A DNA stretch of 8,876 nucleotides, taken from the IMG/VR virus record IMGVR_UViG_2703718798_000006, one strand, 5' to 3'. Source of the DNA: a virus. Lineage: Duplodnaviria > Heunggongvirae > Uroviricota > Caudoviricetes. The position numbers were made by a program, and so were the translations under genes. This document shows positions 117 through 8,876 of this stretch, piece after piece. Position 1 is the first letter of the stretch; each line of letters begins with the position of its first letter. The notes beneath the pieces were generated by a model. It did no database searches, was not told the origin of the DNA, and saw only the letters and a list, made by a program, of their open reading frames with translations.

Positions 117-1109
117 CTAGTCAATGGACAGTTTATGGACACTATCAGCCAGCGGATTAAAGCTAATCGCATCCTGTAAAAAGTCCGGTGAAAAATGCGC
201 ATACGTCATCGTTTGTTGAATCGTGGCGTGCCCAAGGATTCGCTGTAACGTAACGATATTTCCGCCGTTCATCATGAAATGCGTGGCGAACGTGTGACGC
301 ATAACGTGAGTCGCCTGACCTTTGGGTAAATCCGGTTTCACCTCCTGAAGGATATCCCGAAAACGGATGTAATCAGCCTGGTACAATAGCCCGGTTTTTC
401 GGGTTTTTATCAACGAAAGCACCGTATCAGAAACAGGAACCGCGCGGGATTTTCCATTCTTTGTGTTAAAGAACATTACGCGGTTACCAACGATATGCTC
501 ACCACGTAAGCCAGCTGCTTCCCCCCACCTTGCGCCAGTGGAAAGACACAGAACAGCAACACGACGCGCATCCCCCTCGAGTCGTTCAAGCAGCCGATCA
601 ATCTCATCATCTGAAAGAAAGGCCATTTCTGTATTCCTGACCTTGAGCTTACGTATTCCACGCACCGGGTTTTCGTTATGGAAAACCTCCGCATCAATCA
701 GCGAGGTAAACATTGCAGACAAGGCGCACAAATCACGATTAACACTGGAGGGCATTAATCCGGCCTGTAATTTGTCTGAACGATACCCGAGCATAAACTT
801 TCGCGTCATCTCACTGGCGCGGGGGTCCCTCATCTCACGGTTTATTTTTTCCAGCCTGACCCTGTAAGTATCCCCGTAAGGCTGATTCCGGCCATCAAGC
901 ACCCACCAGGCATCTATCAGTTCGGATAACCGACGCTGATCAGCTGGCTTGGCCTGCCACGGTTTATCGTGGAAATTCTGCAAAACATACCTTTCAAACT
1001 CCTGTGCCTTTGACTTCAGGGTAAAAATCTTACGGATCCGCTTTCCTTCCGTCCCTTGCGGTCTTACATCAACCTTATAACGCCCGTCTTTGAGTTGCTT
1101 AATCGACAT
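117..1109 (-). CDS. int: Tyrosine site-specific integrase (P2/186 Int family), 330 aa from ATG at 1109
   Basis: ORF 117..1124 opens with TTG; first ATG at 1109 (MSIKQLKDGRY...) is preceded by GGAGGGG. Length ~P2 Int (337 aa). C-terminal catalytic region has H-x-x-R (VMRHTFATH) and GHATIQQTMTYAH with terminal Tyr, typical of tyrosine recombinases. Confidence 0.9.
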   Translation of the reverse strand: MSIKQLKDGRYKVDVRPQGTEGKRIRKIFTLKSKAQEFERYVLQNFHDKPWQAKPADQRRLSELIDAWWVLDGRNQPYGDTYRVRLEKINREMRDPRASEMTRKFMLGYRSDKLQAGLMPSSVNRDLCALSAMFTSLIDAEVFHNENPVRGIRKLKVRNTEMAFLSDDEIDRLLERLEGDARRVAVLCLSTGARWGEAAGLRGEHIVGNRVMFFNTKNGKSRAVPVSDTVLSLIKTRKTGLLYQADYIRFRDILQEVKPDLPKGQATHVMRHTFATHFMMNGGNIVTLQRILGHATIQQTMTYAHFSPDFLQDAISFNPLADSVHKLSID

Positions 1110-1178
1110 GATTAGCCCCTCCAACGGATGAATCAGCCGTACACTCTCTACGGGATGAAACCCGCTCGATGTACAGCG

Positions 1179-3940: not shown

Positions 3941-4046
3941 CCTGAAGCCGAAAGCAGGCGCGGAATAACACCAGAAAACACACGAGCAATTAATTAAGGC
4001 ATTCATGCCTTCGGGTTCCCTTTGTCTTTTTTTCAGGAGTCAACAA

Positions 4047-4280
4047 ATGAGAACAGCCGAATCACCCGGCAGAGAAATAACCGCCAGACCAGCTAACCAT
4101 CATGCGCATATCAGCATGGCCGCAAGAAAAGCCGAGCGTGCACATATCTGCGAATTACTGCGCGAGCTGACCGAGACAGCGAAAGAAAAACACACCTCCC
4201 CGCTGGAAACCTGTTCAGTCATTGAACGACTGATTGCAATGCTCACCAGCCAGGACGAACCGAAGGAGCCCGTACAATGA
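4047..4280 (+). CDS. Hypothetical protein, 77 aa (ORF opens at 4005)
   Basis: ATG 4047 preceded by AGGAG (4035-4039) at 7-nt spacing; the upstream ATG 4005 lies inside a hairpin with no SD. Stop overlaps the exonuclease start (ATGA). Confidence 0.55.
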   Translation: MRTAESPGREITARPANHHAHISMAARKAERAHICELLRELTETAKEKHTSPLETCSVIERLIAMLTSQDEPKEPVQ

Positions 4281-4858
4281 ACCATCTCATGATTGACACC
4301 GAAACACTGGGTAACGGACCGGACGCAGTCATATTCGCGATCGGCGCGGTGTTTTTCGACCCGTTCACCGGAAAACTGGGCAAGCAGTTTGAGAAATTCA
4401 TCGACCCGGTGGATTCAGAACGCAACGGCGGAACCGTCAGTGCAACAACCGCTGTATGGTGGGCCGGACAATCCGTGGAGGCCAGGGCCTGCCTGCGCAA
4501 CGCAGAGGGAACAGAGCTGGCAGCAGTGACCGAATTTCTGGCGTTCATTTCACGCAATATGCATGACGAAAGCCCGGGCAATTCACTGACCATATGGTGC
4601 AAGGGCGCATCCTTCGATTTCCCAATCCTGAGATCCGCCATAAAGCGAACAACCGGAGAAAAAAGTATTCCGTGGTGTTACTGGGACGAGCGCTGTATGC
4701 GTCCGCTTATCGCCATGGCTGAATCAACCGGCTGGAGAATGCCAGGCCGATCAGGAAAAGAGGCTATTGCTCACACTGCACTGGGCGATGCCATTTACCA
4801 GGCAAAGGTCGTGTCAGAAATCTGGCAGCGCTTCACAACGCCATTCCTGAACATATGA
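4277..4858 (+). CDS. DEDDh-type (DnaQ-like) 3'-5' exonuclease, 193 aa
   Basis: SD AAGGAG (4263-4268). Exo I motif MIDTETLG (Asp/Glu), central ...GASFDFPIL..., Exo III motif HTALGDAIYQ (His-x4-Asp), in the order expected for DEDDh exonucleases. Confidence 0.8.
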   Translation: MNHLMIDTETLGNGPDAVIFAIGAVFFDPFTGKLGKQFEKFIDPVDSERNGGTVSATTAVWWAGQSVEARACLRNAEGTELAAVTEFLAFISRNMHDESPGNSLTIWCKGASFDFPILRSAIKRTTGEKSIPWCYWDERCMRPLIAMAESTGWRMPGRSGKEAIAHTALGDAIYQAKVVSEIWQRFTTPFLNI

Positions 4859-4941
4859 GGTGAAGCATGGTCGCCATCCTGAATGTGTGTTGCTGCCCCC
4901 CCCTGAACGTGGAAAGAAAAGCCCGCGCATCGCTGCGTTTA

Positions 4942-4966
4942 TTCCGCAACGGTGTGCGGAATTTTT
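4942..4966 (+). terminator. Rho-independent terminator: 7-bp stem TTCCGCA/TGCGGAA, 6-nt loop, T5 tail
   Basis: Perfect hairpin immediately followed by TTTTT, in the gap between the exonuclease and dam. Confidence 0.55.
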
Positions 4967-5090
4967 CACGCATAAAGCCCCACAACTACCTGGTGATAAG
5001 AATCGGTTTTCGCTGGCGATTACTCAGCAAGAACAACGGGAAGTCATGGGATTTATTAACGCATGAAACCTATAACAAAGAGGCCGCGTT

Positions 5091-6071
5091 ATGAGCAAAG
5101 AACTGTTATCCGGCACACCGCTGAAATGGGTGGGTGGCAAAAGCCGCATCATGAACACACTGAAGGTGCATCTGCCAGAAGCTGACTGCCTGGTTGAACC
5201 GTTCGTGGGTGGCGCATCGGTATTCATGAACACCAGTTACAAACGCTACATCCTGGGTGATTCCAATGGTGCGCTGATTAATTTCTGGCGGGCAGCACGG
5301 GACAACACAGACAGTCTGATCGACGAGGCGAAAACCCTGTTCCTGAACCACAACAACAGGGGTGACTATCTCATCATTCGCGAAACCTTTAACGCAGAGA
5401 ATCATGCCTTCCTGAGTAGCAGAACGGGAATAAGCGACCGCCGTGAACTGCGACTGGCCGCCATGTTTTTGTACCTCAACCGGCACTGTTTTAATGGCCT
5501 GTACCGGGTGAACGGAAAAGGCGATTTTAACGTGCCTTTCGGCTGCTACCGCAAGCCCTATTTCCCTGAGCATGAAATCCGCGCATTTGCAGACAAGGCA
5601 AACAGCACCCGAACGCTGCTTATCCACGCAGATTTTAAGGATACGCTGAACTCTGCCAGTCACCTGTTCGGCATGGGCAACACGCTTTGCGTGTACTGCG
5701 ATCCCCCTTACCTGCAATTCAGTGGCCGGGACAATTTCACCGCCTACGGAAAACCATTCGATGAACACGAGCACGTTCGCCTGAGGGCAGCACTTGACCG
5801 CCTTTCGCAGGAAACGGGCGGCATGACCAGCATCACCATCTCCAATTCCGACACACCGGAAACCAGACGCATTTATCAGGGTTACCGGATGAACTGCATA
5901 CAGGCACCACGCAGCGTTGGCGCAAGAACCCGCGAACCAGCACCGGAAGTTATCGCCACCCTGAGACAGTGCGACGCCTGCGGTCACTATGGCGGTGGCT
6001 ACTGCCCGGACTGCGGACCGGTAACGGGAGATGCAACTTACTGCGTGATGTTTACCCCTGCCAGTACGTGA
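5091..6071 (+). CDS. dam: Dam-family N6-adenine DNA methyltransferase with C-terminal Cys4 extension, 326 aa
   Basis: SD AGAGG at 7-nt spacing. N-terminal LKWVGGK and AdoMet motif FVGGASVF (res 38-45), catalytic DPPY (res 204-207). C-terminal CDACGHYGGGYCPDCG (CxxC-x7-CxxC, nt 5970..6014) not present in canonical Dam as I recall it. GATC specificity not verifiable here. Confidence 0.9.
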   Translation: MSKELLSGTPLKWVGGKSRIMNTLKVHLPEADCLVEPFVGGASVFMNTSYKRYILGDSNGALINFWRAARDNTDSLIDEAKTLFLNHNNRGDYLIIRETFNAENHAFLSSRTGISDRRELRLAAMFLYLNRHCFNGLYRVNGKGDFNVPFGCYRKPYFPEHEIRAFADKANSTRTLLIHADFKDTLNSASHLFGMGNTLCVYCDPPYLQFSGRDNFTAYGKPFDEHEHVRLRAALDRLSQETGGMTSITISNSDTPETRRIYQGYRMNCIQAPRSVGARTREPAPEVIATLRQCDACGHYGGGYCPDCGPVTGDATYCVMFTPAST

Positions 6072-6106
6072 ATAAACAGATGAATCAGTAACACAGGAGT
6101 CAGGAA

Positions 6107-6343
6107 ATGAATAGCGAAAGAAACAAAGCACTTTTGCGGGGGTTACGTCACATCGCCCATGCACACGAGGAAACAGCCAAAGTTGCGGCTGCCGTTGGAA
6201 AACCAAAGGTCGTTATATCTTCCTCGATCTCACTGGGGATCACCATGGAAGCAATCCGGGTGATTCAGGATCAGGAAAGTGAAATCGCCGCCCTTAAAAA
6301 GCAGCTCAACGAGAAATCTGCCGGACAAAGGGGTCAGCAATGA
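6107..6343 (+). CDS. Hypothetical protein, 78 aa
   Basis: ATG 6107 preceded by AGGAG (6095-6099); stop overlaps the next start (ATGA 6340-6343). Confidence 0.6.
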   Translation: MNSERNKALLRGLRHIAHAHEETAKVAAAVGKPKVVISSSISLGITMEAIRVIQDQESEIAALKKQLNEKSAGQRGQQ

Positions 6344-6558
6344 TCCAGGAGTCAACCGTCATCCGGTTCACAGCCAACGGCCGCCAGTACGAAGTCGACG
6401 AAAGCCTGATTGACCAGGGCATGACACGCCAGGATTCACGCAATCCTGAGATGCATCACATCCGCCTTATCAACGGTTCTCACTTCTGCGCCACGAACAT
6501 GGAAGAAGTACGCGTGCTGACAGCAACACGCAACGCGGGAGGTAAAGCATGGCCGTGA
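6340..6558 (+). CDS. Hypothetical protein, 72 aa
   Basis: Translationally coupled to the upstream gene; AAGGGG upstream; 3' end overlaps the next gene by 10 nt. Confidence 0.6.
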   Translation: MIQESTVIRFTANGRQYEVDESLIDQGMTRQDSRNPEMHHIRLINGSHFCATNMEEVRVLTATRNAGGKAWP

Positions 6559-6899
6559 TTTATATCGCCGGTCCCATGACCGGATACAAAGACGACAACA
6601 GACTGGAGTTTTGCCTGGCGGACCTGAAGCTTAGGTACGCCGGAAACATTGTTCTTAATCCTGCCGTACTGCCTGACGGATTAAGCCAGCAGCAGTACAT
6701 GAGCATTTGTATTCCGATGCTCATGTGTGCCGATGCCATTTACTTACTGGATGGATGGGAAGAGTCCGCTGGCGCACGGGCTGAGTACGCAATGGCACTC
6801 AAGCTGAACATGCCGGTGTCATTCCCGGAAAATCGGGCGGCCGGCGAAACTGTCGCACAGCTGCTTGGCAAATCAAAAGCCGCACAGGCGACTGAGTAA
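6549..6899 (+). CDS. Nucleoside 2-deoxyribosyltransferase-like (DUF4406-type) protein, 116 aa
   Basis: SD GGGAGG upstream. N-terminal VIYIAGPMTG and later ...DAIYLLDGWEESAGARAEYAMA... match the motif pattern I associate with the NDT-like/DUF4406 fold. Confidence 0.65.
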   Translation: MAVIYIAGPMTGYKDDNRLEFCLADLKLRYAGNIVLNPAVLPDGLSQQQYMSICIPMLMCADAIYLLDGWEESAGARAEYAMALKLNMPVSFPENRAAGETVAQLLGKSKAAQATE

Positions 6900-7337
6900 C
6901 CGACCGGAGATCGAAACATGATTGCGCGAAGAGCTGCCAACCGCCTCACAGGCTTTATTCCAGGCAAGATTAATCATGCACTCCATGATGGGACTGTCAC
7001 TTTCCTCAACAAAGGAGAGGCGCGCAATCATGCATTCCTTACTAATCACATGGCGCTGACTGATAAGGCGCTGGTAACTGACTGCCTGCCATTCAGCCTT
7101 TTCAGCCCTGCGTTCAAAACTGGCAGCCATGCACTGCCAAAGCAGAAACAGAACCACACTGAAGAGTACCAACACAACAAAATCACACAGGACAAACGCC
7201 GCAACACCAACCAGAAAGGCGCTGATTCGCAGAGCAGCAGAAACGCGTCGGTGAAACACACATGTAATACGTTCAAGCCAGTAGCTGTACCACAGGTCAA
7301 AAAGAATGTCGTAATCAGAAGGGAGCTTATCACTCAT
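6873..7337 (-). CDS. Hypothetical two-TM membrane protein, 154 aa, antisense to the early operon (alternative start ATG 7397)
   Basis: Internal ATG (7337) of minus ORF 6873..7673. Two adjacent hydrophobic helices (ISAFLVGVAAFVLC-D-FVVLVLFSVVLFLLW) flanked by basic residues. The overlapping plus ORF 6918..8030 is low-complexity and runs through two terminators. Weak SD (GGGG 10 nt upstream). Confidence 0.4.
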   Translation of the reverse strand: MSDKLPSDYDILFDLWYSYWLERITCVFHRRVSAALRISAFLVGVAAFVLCDFVVLVLFSVVLFLLWQCMAASFERRAEKAEWQAVSYQRLISQRHVISKECMIARLSFVEESDSPIMECMINLAWNKACEAVGSSSRNHVSISGRLLSRLCGF

Positions 7338-7500
7338 CAGAAACACCCCGCGTATGCAGACAATCACCAGTTGCCAGGTGATATTAATTCGCCACATTCT
7401 AACCACATCAGCACGCAACACAAAAACCGCTTGCCAGCGTTCGCCTGGTCGGGTTACAGTTTTCCCGCACCTCATAAAACGGGTGCCGGGATTGCAACCC

Positions 7501-7542
7501 CCGCTGACTACACAAGCGCACAACCGCGCCAGCGGTTTTTTT
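7501..7542 (+). terminator. Strong Rho-independent terminator T1: stem CCGCTG/CAGCGG with internal GCGC/GCGC sub-stem, then T7
   Basis: 6-bp GC-rich outer stem (7501-7506 / 7530-7535) directly followed by TTTTTTT (7536-7542); 4-bp inner stem 7516-7519 / 7526-7529. Confidence 0.6.
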
Positions 7543-7582
7543 GTGCGTACCGCATCGTCACATCTTTTTCGCGTCAGAATTA

Positions 7583-7660
7583 TGGTGGGGCGTACAGGGC
7601 CGACTTCGGTCGGGCCGGGGTCTTGTGTAGCCGGTGGTTGCAACCCTGTACGTCTCACCA
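7583..7660 (+). ncRNA. Candidate structured RNA (sRNA or cis-acting leader/antiterminator) in the 17-bp stem fold
   Basis: 7583-7599 pairs with 7644-7660 over 17 bp including two G-U wobbles (7590-7653, 7588-7655), which are valid only in plus-strand RNA. Enclosed hairpin 7600-7604/7609-7613 has loop TTCG with C-G closing pair (cUUCGg). ORF-free region. Confidence 0.45.
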
Positions 7661-7692
7661 CCCAGAATTGCAACCTCTGGATGGTGAGTTTT
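7654..7692 (+). terminator. Putative intrinsic terminator T2: 7-bp + 5-bp stem (one mismatch), 9-nt loop, T4 tail; mutually exclusive with the 17-bp stem
   Basis: CTCACCA(7654-7660)/TGGTGAG(7682-7688) and CCAGA(7662-7666)/TCTGG(7676-7680), followed by TTTT (7689-7692). The 5' arm is also the 3' arm of the long stem at 7583-7660. Confidence 0.45.
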
Positions 7693-7720
7693 CAAAACTT
7701 ACTACACAAGAGGCCACACC

Positions 7721-7948
7721 ATGGCAAACCGCAAGCAACAGCGCGCCCGCGCTGAGCGTCTTCACATCCACACCGAAATCAACCGCAGACTCCATCGGGC
7801 TGCATCTGTCTCCTTCATCATGCAGTCAAACGTATTACACCGACTTAACGACGGTATCGCTGCCGGGTATTACGCGGCAGTCTTCAGCTATCTGGCCGAA
7901 GACCTGGCAGAACTGCAGGACCTTATCAACCAGCAACACCACCACTAA
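7721..7948 (+). CDS. Hypothetical small basic/helical protein, 75 aa, ending HHH
   Basis: ATG 7721 preceded by AAGAGG (7708-7713) at 7-nt spacing; first gene after the structured leader. Confidence 0.6.
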   Translation: MANRKQQRARAERLHIHTEINRRLHRAASVSFIMQSNVLHRLNDGIAAGYYAAVFSYLAEDLAELQDLINQQHHH

Positions 7949-8016
7949 ACAACATCCTGAAGCCATCCCGCACCCGTGCGCGGGAGGCTTCCGCACGTCT
8001 GTTACCGGAGGTTCTC

Positions 8017-8427
8017 ATGAAGAGCGTTAAGGGACTTTCAGATATTCAGGATTTTTTTAACTGGATGTGGGCAGTGGATCCCCGGCTGGCTTCCCGCCTG
8101 AACGACTGGCACGACTATTACCGCCGCGCCTGTAAACAGGCCGCCAGACACGTCACCACATACGGGGATTTCTCCTTCACCGTTGACGACCGTTACCGCG
8201 TGGACGTGAAAGGTGATGGTTTTGGTTTATTTCACATCAACGGAACCGACAGCACCGCCATCAGTTGGTCGTCGTCAGAGATGACGCTTGTTCTGGAAAT
8301 GACAACGCACAGCGTGGCCGTGAAAGGCATATACACCGCAGAAGACTTTATCGGTGAATATCAGCGCCTTCTCGTGCTGTACCGCGCGGCGTTTCAGGCG
8401 GCGACTGCCGGGGAGTGCGACGCATGA
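8017..8427 (+). CDS. Hypothetical protein, 136 aa
   Basis: ATG 8017 preceded by GGAGG (8007-8011); stop overlaps the next start (ATGA 8424-8427). Confidence 0.65.
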   Translation: MKSVKGLSDIQDFFNWMWAVDPRLASRLNDWHDYYRRACKQAARHVTTYGDFSFTVDDRYRVDVKGDGFGLFHINGTDSTAISWSSSEMTLVLEMTTHSVAVKGIYTAEDFIGEYQRLLVLYRAAFQAATAGECDA

Positions 8428-8651
8428 GTGACCACAATGCACAGCTGGCGTACCCGTGGAACGCCCCGCTACCGGTTATCGATCCTGAAACGTTCGGCAG
8501 AGCGCAGCCAACCGCATTACGCCAGGCCATTCAGAGCTACATCAACGAGGATATTCGCACTGACGCCAGACTGGATGAAGAAACCGTCGCCTTCCTGACA
8601 ACCACAGACGAAGGGAAGCGAATTAATTCGCATCTTCAAACTGGTATCTGA
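8424..8651 (+). CDS. Hypothetical protein, 75 aa (ORF opens with GTG at 8415)
   Basis: ATG 8424 translationally coupled to the upstream gene; GGGGAG upstream. Confidence 0.5.
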   Translation: MSDHNAQLAYPWNAPLPVIDPETFGRAQPTALRQAIQSYINEDIRTDARLDEETVAFLTTTDEGKRINSHLQTGI

Positions 8652-8655
8652 AGCC

Positions 8656-8876
8656 ATGGCAGAGCTGCGCGCCCTGCCGCCGTTTCTTGCCGGTCCGCTC
8701 ATCCGTGACCTGGCGCGCCTGAGCCGCAAACAGGAGAGCGCACGCCGGGAAGGGCTTAAGAATAACAGCGCATATGCGGCGGATAACTTCGTTCGTCACG
8801 GGCTGCGTGCCCGCCTGAAACGTATCGCCCGTGTGAATGAACGCTTTGCCACCCCGGCCTTTAAGGCCACCGCCGC
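8656..8876 (+). CDS. 5' end of an ORF running off the window (>=73 codons); possibly the replication initiator (gpA-like) by position
   Basis: ATG 8656, 4 nt after the previous stop and in a different frame; open to the window end (MAELRALPPFLAGPLIRDLARLSRKQ...RIARVNERF...). Functional guess rests on P2 gene order and a faint recollection of P2 A; unverified. Confidence 0.4.
   Translation, partial: MAELRALPPFLAGPLIRDLARLSRKQESARREGLKNNSAYAADNFVRHGLRARLKRIARVNERFATPAFKATA

Follow-up and report, generated by a model that had tools for sequence, protein, structure and literature searches.

Positions 4005-6899 of an 8,876-nucleotide (nt) stretch of prophage DNA (IMG/VR record IMGVR_UViG_2703718798_000006, Caudoviricetes), the whole of which is called the window here, probably belong to the early Pe operon of a P2-like Escherichia coli prophage, as a mosaic segment that is accessory and non-essential. 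The seven genes of this region would be united by one transcript and by a common theme of DNA and nucleotide transactions; they would not constitute an obligate three-enzyme machine. In the original prediction, a DEDDh exonuclease (Exo), a Dam methyltransferase, two small open reading frames (ORFs) and a nucleoside 2-deoxyribosyltransferase (NDT)/DUF4406-like protein at 4277-6899 had been suggested to form a module for anti-restriction or manipulation of the nucleotide pool, set apart from the upstream genes by an intrinsic terminator. We recovered all of these enzymes and ORFs, added one gene to the list and lost the terminator. The features of the region are as follows:

4005..4280, plus strand: orf91, 91 residues as listed, with a conserved part of about 75 residues; phrog_22206 (E value 2e-42)
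4277..4858, plus strand: exo, DEDDh 3'-5' exonuclease of the Rv2179c/T4-DexA family, 193 residues; PF16473, phrog_255
4867..5094, plus strand: ParE-like gene, RelE/ParE-fold protein (Pfam ParE_like), 75 residues; PF24732, phrog_1525
4896..4903, plus strand: poly-C tract (8 C) in the 5' part of the ParE-like ORF
4941..4966, plus strand: intragenic hairpin plus TTTT, incidental to the codons R-N-G-V-R-N-F-S
5091..6071, plus strand: dam, orphan Dam-family (D12 class) N6-adenine DNA methyltransferase, 326 residues; PF02086, TIGR00571
5958..6056, plus strand: zinc ribbon of Dam (CxxC...CxxC), residues 290-322, with CDACG at 294-298 and CPDCG at 305-309
6107..6343, plus strand: orf78, 78 residues; phrog_23826 (E value 1e-40)
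6340..6558, plus strand: orf72, 72 residues; phrog_3459 (E value 3e-34)
6549..6899, plus strand: DUF4406 protein with a nucleoside 2-deoxyribosyltransferase/nucleotide N-glycosidase fold, 116 residues; PF14359, phrog_355

The window covers the left end of this prophage, which belongs to the Peduoviridae and is related to P88/Xuanwuvirus; the region lies between a Cox-type regulator with small early genes and an isrK/C4-gpA replication region. Prophages of 27 complete Escherichia coli genomes cover 4277-6899 over its full length at 93-95% identity. The best-matching E. coli prophage adjoins dmsABC and carries gpA (replication endonuclease) as well as P2-type portal, terminase and capsid genes. 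Among isolated phages, DNA similarity was detected only with P88/Xuanwuvirus-type phages, and it lies outside 4277-6899.

All junctions among the seven genes are either overlaps or gaps of at most 35 nt that contain a Shine-Dalgarno (SD) sequence. ATGA overlaps were found between orf91 and exo (4277-4280), between the ParE-like gene and dam (5091-5094), and between orf78 and orf72, and orf72 overlaps the DUF4406 gene by 10 nt. The 8 nt between exo and the ParE-like gene include a GAGGTG SD sequence 4 nt before the ATG, and the 35-nt gap between dam and orf78 holds an AGGAG SD sequence. Because all seven genes abut or overlap, 4005-6899 is predicted to be one uninterrupted, translationally coupled early-operon transcript with no internal terminator. 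Scans of the window returned no Rfam match, no called terminator and no plus-strand promoter-like site within 4277-6899.

The intrinsic terminator that had been placed at 4942-4966 was rejected, as folding, terminator scan and homologue comparison all speak against it. The hairpin itself is real (ATTCCGCA-ACGGTG-TGCGGAAT, 4941-4962, with 8 bp including 4 GC pairs, -10.0 kcal/mol and a TTTTC tail). An intrinsic terminator was taken to have a G+C-rich stem, to be followed directly by a run of at least five U, to be located after the end of a gene and to be conserved in relatives; the hairpin falls short in stem, U-run, position and conservation. It was not called by the scan and is not the minimum free energy fold of its surroundings, another fold of the segment being more stable. 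Terminator-like sites show no excess in the window (15 vs. 12.0 +/- 4.0 in shuffled sequences). The hairpin is located inside the ParE-like ORF, at codons 25-33, and spans the codons F-R-N-G-V-R-N-F; the T-run is formed by the codons Asn-Phe-Ser within a conserved RNFSR motif. In homologues with about 60% identity the RNFSR peptide is kept, but hairpin and T-run are lost. The 232 nt that had been taken for an intergenic gap isolating the downstream genes are in fact a gene, since a conserved 75-residue ORF occupies them, its stop codon overlapping the dam start. This case illustrates how a short conserved ORF can be misread as an intergenic terminator.

The distribution of the genes was studied by searches anchored on each gene in IMG/VR, and for the ParE-like gene also in GTDB genomes; neighbours were scored by tblastn. 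The following counts were obtained:

ParE-like anchor, 80 usable loci: exo in 75, dam in 72, DUF4406 in 7 (each with 70% or more identity to the window), PAPS-reductase-like gene in 6
exo anchor, 54 usable loci: dam in 46, ParE-like gene in 17, DUF4406 in 8 (7 of them close relatives), PAPS-reductase-like gene in 6, dcm in 18
DUF4406 anchor, 51 usable loci: exo in 6, dam in 5, ParE-like gene in 1, MT-A70 methyltransferase gene in 6

Co-occurrence of the three enzyme genes elsewhere, as had been proposed, was thus borne out for two of them: exo and dam are adjacent in 46 of 54 and in 72 of 80 loci, whereas DUF4406 is mostly found without the other two. In the six exo-anchored loci with a PAPS-reductase-like gene, this gene mostly replaces dam. 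Another 23 exo loci are lambdoid-type contigs without any other query gene, and look-ups of distant Exo homologues found exo alone in non-P2 phages. When the flank-length filter was omitted, 38 of 78 DUF4406-anchored loci had no other query gene inside 8 kb. Exo, dam and DUF4406 were found together in the E. coli lineage, in Serratia, in Sodalis and in one IMG/VR contig, all of the positives belonging to one phage family. The gene order is exo-dam-67-residue ORF-DUF4406-gpA in the Serratia P2-like prophage (L100) and exo-dam-gpA...DUF4406 in that of Sodalis (L103), with about 44-57% identity of the trio to the window. A Salmonella P2-like prophage possesses the ParE-like gene, an orf72-like ORF, a Dam remnant of 37 codons and DUF4406, without exo. 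From these data, enterobacterial P2-like prophages stably keep a DNA-modification gene behind exo, the ParE-like gene is often inserted between the two, and orf78-orf72-DUF4406 is a separate, sporadic and lineage-restricted unit.

Two isolated phages show parts of this arrangement. Klebsiella phage ST16-OXA48phi5.4 (Reipivirus) has the order exo-ParE-dam-gpA, which agrees with the window in order and in its position between cox and gene A; unlike in the window, the catalytic residues of Exo are lost, and orf78, orf72 and DUF4406 are absent. In Salmonella phage SW5 (Irrigatiovirus) the position between cox and gene A is again the same and the ParE-like gene stands between methyltransferase genes, but the order is dam-ParE-dcm and there is no exo, orf78, orf72 or DUF4406.

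Several rearrangements of the block were also observed. Deletions fuse the first ~37-47 dam codons to DUF4406 or leave such codons just 5' of it (L022, 5060-5401; L098, 4855-5306), and one database protein (P0120) has Dam and DUF4406 Pfam domains within 117 residues, which shows that dam is readily lost from the block. A 338-residue PAPS-reductase-like protein with an SGGKDS motif is encoded in the dam slot after exo/ParE-like in L041 (~5126-6142), L043, L044, L046, L050 and L147-L149; in effect, genes for DNA modification are interchangeable at this position. An MT-A70 adenine methyltransferase gene and an unrelated 72-residue ORF precede DUF4406 in lambdoid E. coli prophages (L096, 4130-5297; L187, L196 and L239); DUF4406 is hence paired with an adenine methyltransferase a second time, independently.

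These distributions bear directly on the proposal that exo, dam and DUF4406 form a single, terminator-delimited module directed against restriction or nucleotide signalling. Nucleic acids or nucleotides would be the substrates of all three enzymes, and Dam methylation is a classical anti-restriction device. The trio recurs in Serratia and Sodalis, and 6 of 51 DUF4406-anchored loci, mostly lambdoid, have exo inside 8 kb. Nevertheless, 45 of 46 distant exo-anchored and 73 of 73 distant ParE-anchored loci lack DUF4406, and the 476 phage records of DUF4406 are mostly from actinophages and vibriophages, where it is often found beside MazG or dCMP-deaminase genes. The supposed boundary of the module lies within a gene and is not conserved, and comparison with the PADLOC and anti-defence families gave only generic matches: methyltransferase models (including a weak PD-Lambda-5_B, E value 1e-13) and a weak Cas-associated DEDDh model (E value 4e-5). 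Moreover, the probable orthologue of Exo described below targets modified phage DNA, not host defence signals. We consider a single module of this kind unlikely. The idea that the region is accessory rather than core is upheld by its variable presence among P2-like prophages; a role in anti-restriction or nucleotide signalling is not, the probable orthologue attacking DNA of T4-type phages.

The exonuclease matches PF16473 (Rv2179c-like) over its full length (E value 2.5e-50, 171.1 bits, cut-off 27) and phrog_255 with an E value of 2e-60. It retains the complete set of five DEDDh residues, of which D7, E9, D114, H166 and D171 align to D7, E9, D119, H186 and D191 of T4 DexA. DexA is its closest solved structure (8KEL/8KEN, E value 5e-11), and tblastn with Exo retrieved T4 dexA itself plus 1,456 phage records. 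Exo differs from DexA in sequence (~23-26% identity) and in the absence of DexA's extra loops. Residue W136 aligns to DexA W152, which is involved in recognition of 5-hydroxymethylcytosine (5hmC). In the column of DexA D169, an acidic position likewise counted towards 5hmC recognition, the alignment is loose, and Exo has S150, with E149 adjacent. Both HMMER and MAFFT place A82 of Exo opposite the DexA tetramerisation residue D90.

An E. coli DexA homologue, EcD, has been described under the name HREX and carries Ala at A78 (Kang et al., Nucleic Acids Res 2025, PMC12153337). EcD leaves unmodified double-stranded DNA uncut, digests 5hmC-containing T4 DNA in vitro by itself and releases 5-hydroxymethyl-dCMP (5hm-dCMP) from it (PMC12153337). 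A plasmid carrying EcD protects E. coli against T4 without Dam or DUF4406 (PMC12153337). EcD has been treated as a bacterial gene, and prophages go unmentioned (PMC12153337). The window Exo is very probably the orthologue of EcD, to judge from primer, residue and cluster comparisons. In its gene-specific part (ATGATTGACACCGAAAC), the EcD forward primer agrees letter for letter with 4289-4305, that is, from Met5 onward. The primer starts at Met5, which accounts for an offset of four residues in numbering; counted from Met5, A82 becomes A78, as in EcD, and the absence of Asp at this position matches the EcD-type dimer signature. E. coli forms of 189 residues that start at Met5 share 90% clusters with the closest relatives of Exo. 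EcD, T4 DexA and the window Exo are alike in Pfam family, DEDDh residues and the Trp at the position of DexA W152; the likeness of EcD to the window Exo extends to the Ala at the D90 position, the forward primer and the offset of 4 codons. The difference is one of setting: EcD was published as bacterial, whereas the window exo is a prophage early-operon gene located beside the ParE-like gene and dam, as it is in the 27 E. coli genomes. By way of this probable orthologue, degradation of 5hmC DNA and exclusion of T4 may be expected of the window Exo.

Full-length exo orthologues without the DEDDh residues were observed in Klebsiella-type P2-like prophages, where DEDHD is changed to DIKRD, DIKCD, DRS-D and similar combinations. 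Such catalytically dead copies are located directly 5' of the ParE-like gene (L003, 4286-4852; L040, 2839-3387; ~70 other ParE-anchored loci). That they have been retained at full length hints at a non-catalytic role. An implication from dead exo to the ParE-like gene is not claimed: the contingency is striking, but it is confounded by lineage and by the anchor gene of the sampling. In Klebsiella P2-like loci, a homologue of orf91 with 47% identity is found directly 5' of exo.

The methyltransferase was confirmed with PF02086 (E value 1.6e-53, 182.5 bits, cut-off 22), TIGR00571 dam (227 bits, cut-off 114.85), motif I (FVGGASVF, residues 38-45) and motif IV (DPPY, residues 204-207). It does not reach the cut-off of the E. 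coli Dam equivalog NF008152 (218.6 bits vs. 441), which makes it a phage-type member of the family and not an orthologue of the host enzyme. The best PADLOC model is 'orphan methyltransferase' (251 bits). The target is presumed from family membership to be GATC, which is present 20 times in the window, against 33.8 expected by base composition. Like the orphan Dams of T4, P1 and Stx-phage (TIGR00571), the protein is of the D12 class with DPPY and FxGxG motifs and has no partner endonuclease. Unlike them, it bears at its C-terminus a zinc ribbon whose other occurrences are in RecE-N-like and Exo fusion proteins. The ribbon (the last ~35 residues) matches positions 524-556 of the RecE/ExoVIII profile and the 'exonuclease' families phrog_20376 and phrog_2082. 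A ribbon of the same type (CDACG...CPDCG...GDATY) is present in RecE-N-terminal-like proteins of 808-858 residues from lambdoid prophages, ~60-70 residues before a C-terminal Rv2179c-like domain:

L189, 1471-4047, minus strand: ribbon plus Rv2179c-like protein
L248, 273-2747, minus strand: ribbon plus Rv2179c-like protein
L256, 157-2583, minus strand: ribbon plus Rv2179c-like protein

At the level of sequence, the zinc ribbon is thus a domain-level link between the C-terminus of Dam and the exonuclease family.

The gene that had been missed earlier, the 75-residue ORF at 4867-5094, matches PF24732 with 67.3 bits (cut-off 24.4) and phrog_1525 over its whole length (E value 6.7e-28). Profile score and fold together place the product in the RelE/ParE superfamily, and the RefSeq name of its E. 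coli orthologue is 'ParE family toxin-like protein'. Thirty-seven homologues, nearly all of 75 residues, were found in Escherichia, Klebsiella, Salmonella, Enterobacter, Citrobacter and Pantoea. Within the superfamily, mRNA-interferase members rank higher in comparison than ParE members. Residues R45, R51, K55, H66 and Y69 are invariant among the homologues and would presumably fit an mRNA-interferase site. A search of solved structures with the ParE-like profile gave no match; identity to solved type II toxins (RelE, YafQ, YoeB, HigB, ParE) is at most 17%. Unlike these toxins, the ParE-like protein has 75 residues and a single N-terminal helix, lacks an adjacent conserved antitoxin and is encoded inside a phage lytic operon. 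The poly-C tract at 4896-4903 varies by +1 or -1 C among 11 aligned close E. coli relatives, so that the reading frame of the first ~12 codons changes, and with it the annotated start. This variation could be slippage-prone phase variation or sequencing error.

It is conceivable that the ParE-like protein is the toxin of a toxin-antitoxin (TA) or abortive-infection pair whose antidote is the upstream Exo-like protein, Dam or the product of orf78, a reading that we regard as improbable. The five invariant residues recall mRNA-interferase sites, and among the upstream exo genes of the Klebsiella clade, 72 of 82 have lost catalytic residues but are still full-length and abut the ParE-like gene. 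This association suffers from the confounding by lineage and anchor gene already described, and the window Exo is catalytically intact. A faint match of orf78 to ParD antitoxins (E value 0.084) is not significant, and orf78 was rejected as a ParD antitoxin. The neighbours are inconstant on both sides. Upstream of the ParE-like gene, exo, dam (phage SW5), an orf91 homologue/orf74 or unrelated ORFs were found in different loci; downstream, dam, the PAPS-reductase-like gene, a 64-residue ORF, gpA or unrelated ORFs (phage Sortsne). No conserved partner that could be an antitoxin was detected among these neighbours, an arrangement at odds with type II TA architecture, and the small upstream and downstream ORFs of the window and of the Klebsiella, Salmonella and Sortsne loci have no mutual homology. 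We treat the ParE-like protein as a solitary RelE/ParE-fold protein, predicted to be expressed only upon derepression of the early operon.

Both small ORFs downstream of dam are conserved phage ORFs, as their matches to phrog_23826 and phrog_3459 indicate. The first, orf78, is confined to close E. coli relatives, and orf72 weakly resembles the ORF that precedes DUF4406 in a Salmonella P2-like prophage (E value 0.099). The assignment of the last gene of the block as NDT/DUF4406-like also stands: the protein matches PF14359 (E value 8e-33) and phrog_355 (E value 3e-38), its AlphaFold2 model (mean predicted local distance difference test score 90.2) has an NDT-like fold, and the motif S73-x-G75-x3-E79, which includes the conserved active-site Glu, is invariant in 22 homologues. 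The best structural match of the model is hydroxymethyl-CMP hydrolase. No sequence match to any solved PDB chain was obtained; the solved chains of MilB, NDT and DNPH1/Rcl likewise do not match the protein, which is shorter (116 residues). Our literature search found no characterised DUF4406 member and nothing functional on Rv2179c in phage or on ParE-like proteins in P2-like phages.

A third interpretation combines the enzymes in a system of self/non-self DNA modification, in which the Dam ribbon would mark or recruit, Exo would degrade foreign-modified DNA and DUF4406, where present, would destroy the modified nucleotides that are freed. If such a cooperative prophage system for the disposal of foreign hypermodified DNA existed, an EcD-type Exo would degrade 5hmC-type DNA of competitors while the ribbon of Dam tethers or regulates it; DUF4406 would be a MilB/DNPH1-like N-glycosidase that hydrolyses freed hydroxymethylated deoxynucleoside monophosphates, blocking their re-use by competitor or host, and the solitary RelE-fold protein would contribute host shut-off. 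In its favour, the place behind exo is nearly always taken by a gene for DNA modification (dam in 46 of 54 loci, PAPS-reductase-like in 6, often dcm too); lambdoid proteins carry a Dam-type zinc ribbon fused N-terminally to their Exo domain; and DUF4406 has a hydroxymethyl-CMP hydrolase as its best structural match, EcD being known to free 5hm-dCMP from T4 DNA. On the other hand, EcD discriminates 5hmC DNA alone and its plasmid protects without Dam or DUF4406; DUF4406 seldom accompanies exo; the shared domain may mean a common module for binding DNA or a host factor instead of interaction; and the link between Exo and Dam comes from sequence comparison. The system is doubtful as a whole, and we likewise give cooperation of Exo, zinc-ribbon Dam and DUF4406 only a small chance.

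The reading of 4005-6899 as a mosaic accessory segment of the early operon has points against it as well. The orthology with EcD, very probable as it is, depends on the matching forward primer, the numbering of residues and the shared clusters. The EcD reverse primer and the window disagree by a 1-nt indel; no ungapped match of this primer was found in the window or the sampled loci, and HAK9828821.1 (EcD) was not among the cluster members read. Protection by EcD was plasmid-borne, whereas exo sits in a repressed early operon without a detected internal promoter, which makes a defence role of Exo in lysogens uncertain. The functions proposed for the ParE-like protein, orf78, orf72 and DUF4406 are those that fold alone suggests. 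Since the positive loci all belong to one phage family and occupy one genomic position, synteny by descent and functional linkage are inseparable in these data. The adjacency of exo and dam plus the shared zinc ribbon could indicate a functional coupling tighter than that of independent cargo.

Under the mosaic reading, two units can be distinguished. The first would consist of orf91, exo, the ParE-like gene and dam. By its orthology to EcD, Exo would spare unmodified DNA and degrade the 5hmC DNA of T-even competitors. The ParE-like protein may be a host-directed factor of lytic growth, because it has no cognate antitoxin and would be expressed only when the prophage repressor is lifted. Dam would keep the fast-replicating phage DNA methylated while the host enzyme is limiting, as has been described for high-copy DNA (10.1101/2020.06.22.160242); methylation could thereby avoid GATC-directed restriction, MutH nicking and SeqA binding. 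The second unit, orf78-orf72-DUF4406, would be a lineage-restricted add-on. From its N-glycosidase/deoxyribosyltransferase fold and conserved Glu, the DUF4406 protein may act on the (deoxy)nucleotide pool.

The region is flanked by typical elements of a P2-like early region. Upstream, the following features were identified:

117-1124, minus strand: integrase, upstream of the early operon
Upstream of the early operon, minus strand: repressor (phrog_147)
1505-1534: Pe-like promoter, preceding the rightward early operon
First gene of the rightward early operon: Cox-like regulator

On the downstream side, a convergent minus-strand gene (6873-7397; 174 residues with a hydrophobic segment; phrog_6315, E value 3e-54) overlaps the 3' end of the DUF4406 gene by 27 nt. 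It is a reverse-oriented moron in the early region, and the block ends there. Two RNA genes follow:

7467-7542, plus strand: isrK Hfq-binding small RNA (Rfam 59.6 bits, gathering threshold 50), with a clean intrinsic terminator at its end
7578-7665, plus strand: C4 antisense RNA (Rfam 78 bits, gathering threshold 45)

Together they make up a P1/P7 immI-like RNA cassette just 5' of orf75, orf136 and replication gene A, which suggests that this P2-like lineage controls its replication region by antisense RNA. The gap at 6900-8016 is poor in ORFs because these RNA genes are located there. Two long ORFs span the RNA genes (6918-8030, plus strand, 370 residues; 6873-7673, minus strand, 266 residues); they have no whole-length family match and are artefacts of T-poor composition. 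A 133-residue ORF (7354-7755) matches 'transcriptional regulator' PHROGs, which probably reflects ORFs mis-annotated over isrK/C4 genes in other phages. The N-terminus of gpA sits downstream of the region, and the gene looks disrupted (8424-8876, plus strand). Residues 1-72 are encoded in one frame (8424-8639), with a stop at 8651, and residues 95-172 of the E. coli orthologue resume in another frame from 8641, an apparent deletion of ~22 codons combined with a frameshift. This may mean a defective prophage or an error in the assembly.

Taken by itself, the region is ordinary: it is another copy of a known gene block and of little weight alone. Its genes are already annotated in RefSeq copies from dozens of E. 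coli prophages, and one of them has a published function. As far as our searches show, no earlier discussion treats the block as a unit or places EcD in it. If EcD is, as seems very probable, an early gene of P2-like prophages, the defence against T4 attributed to this enzyme would be recast as phage-against-phage warfare, and the timing of its expression would become the question. The zinc ribbon shared with Dam and the dead exo copies beside the ParE-like gene would be cheap leads for research on HREX.

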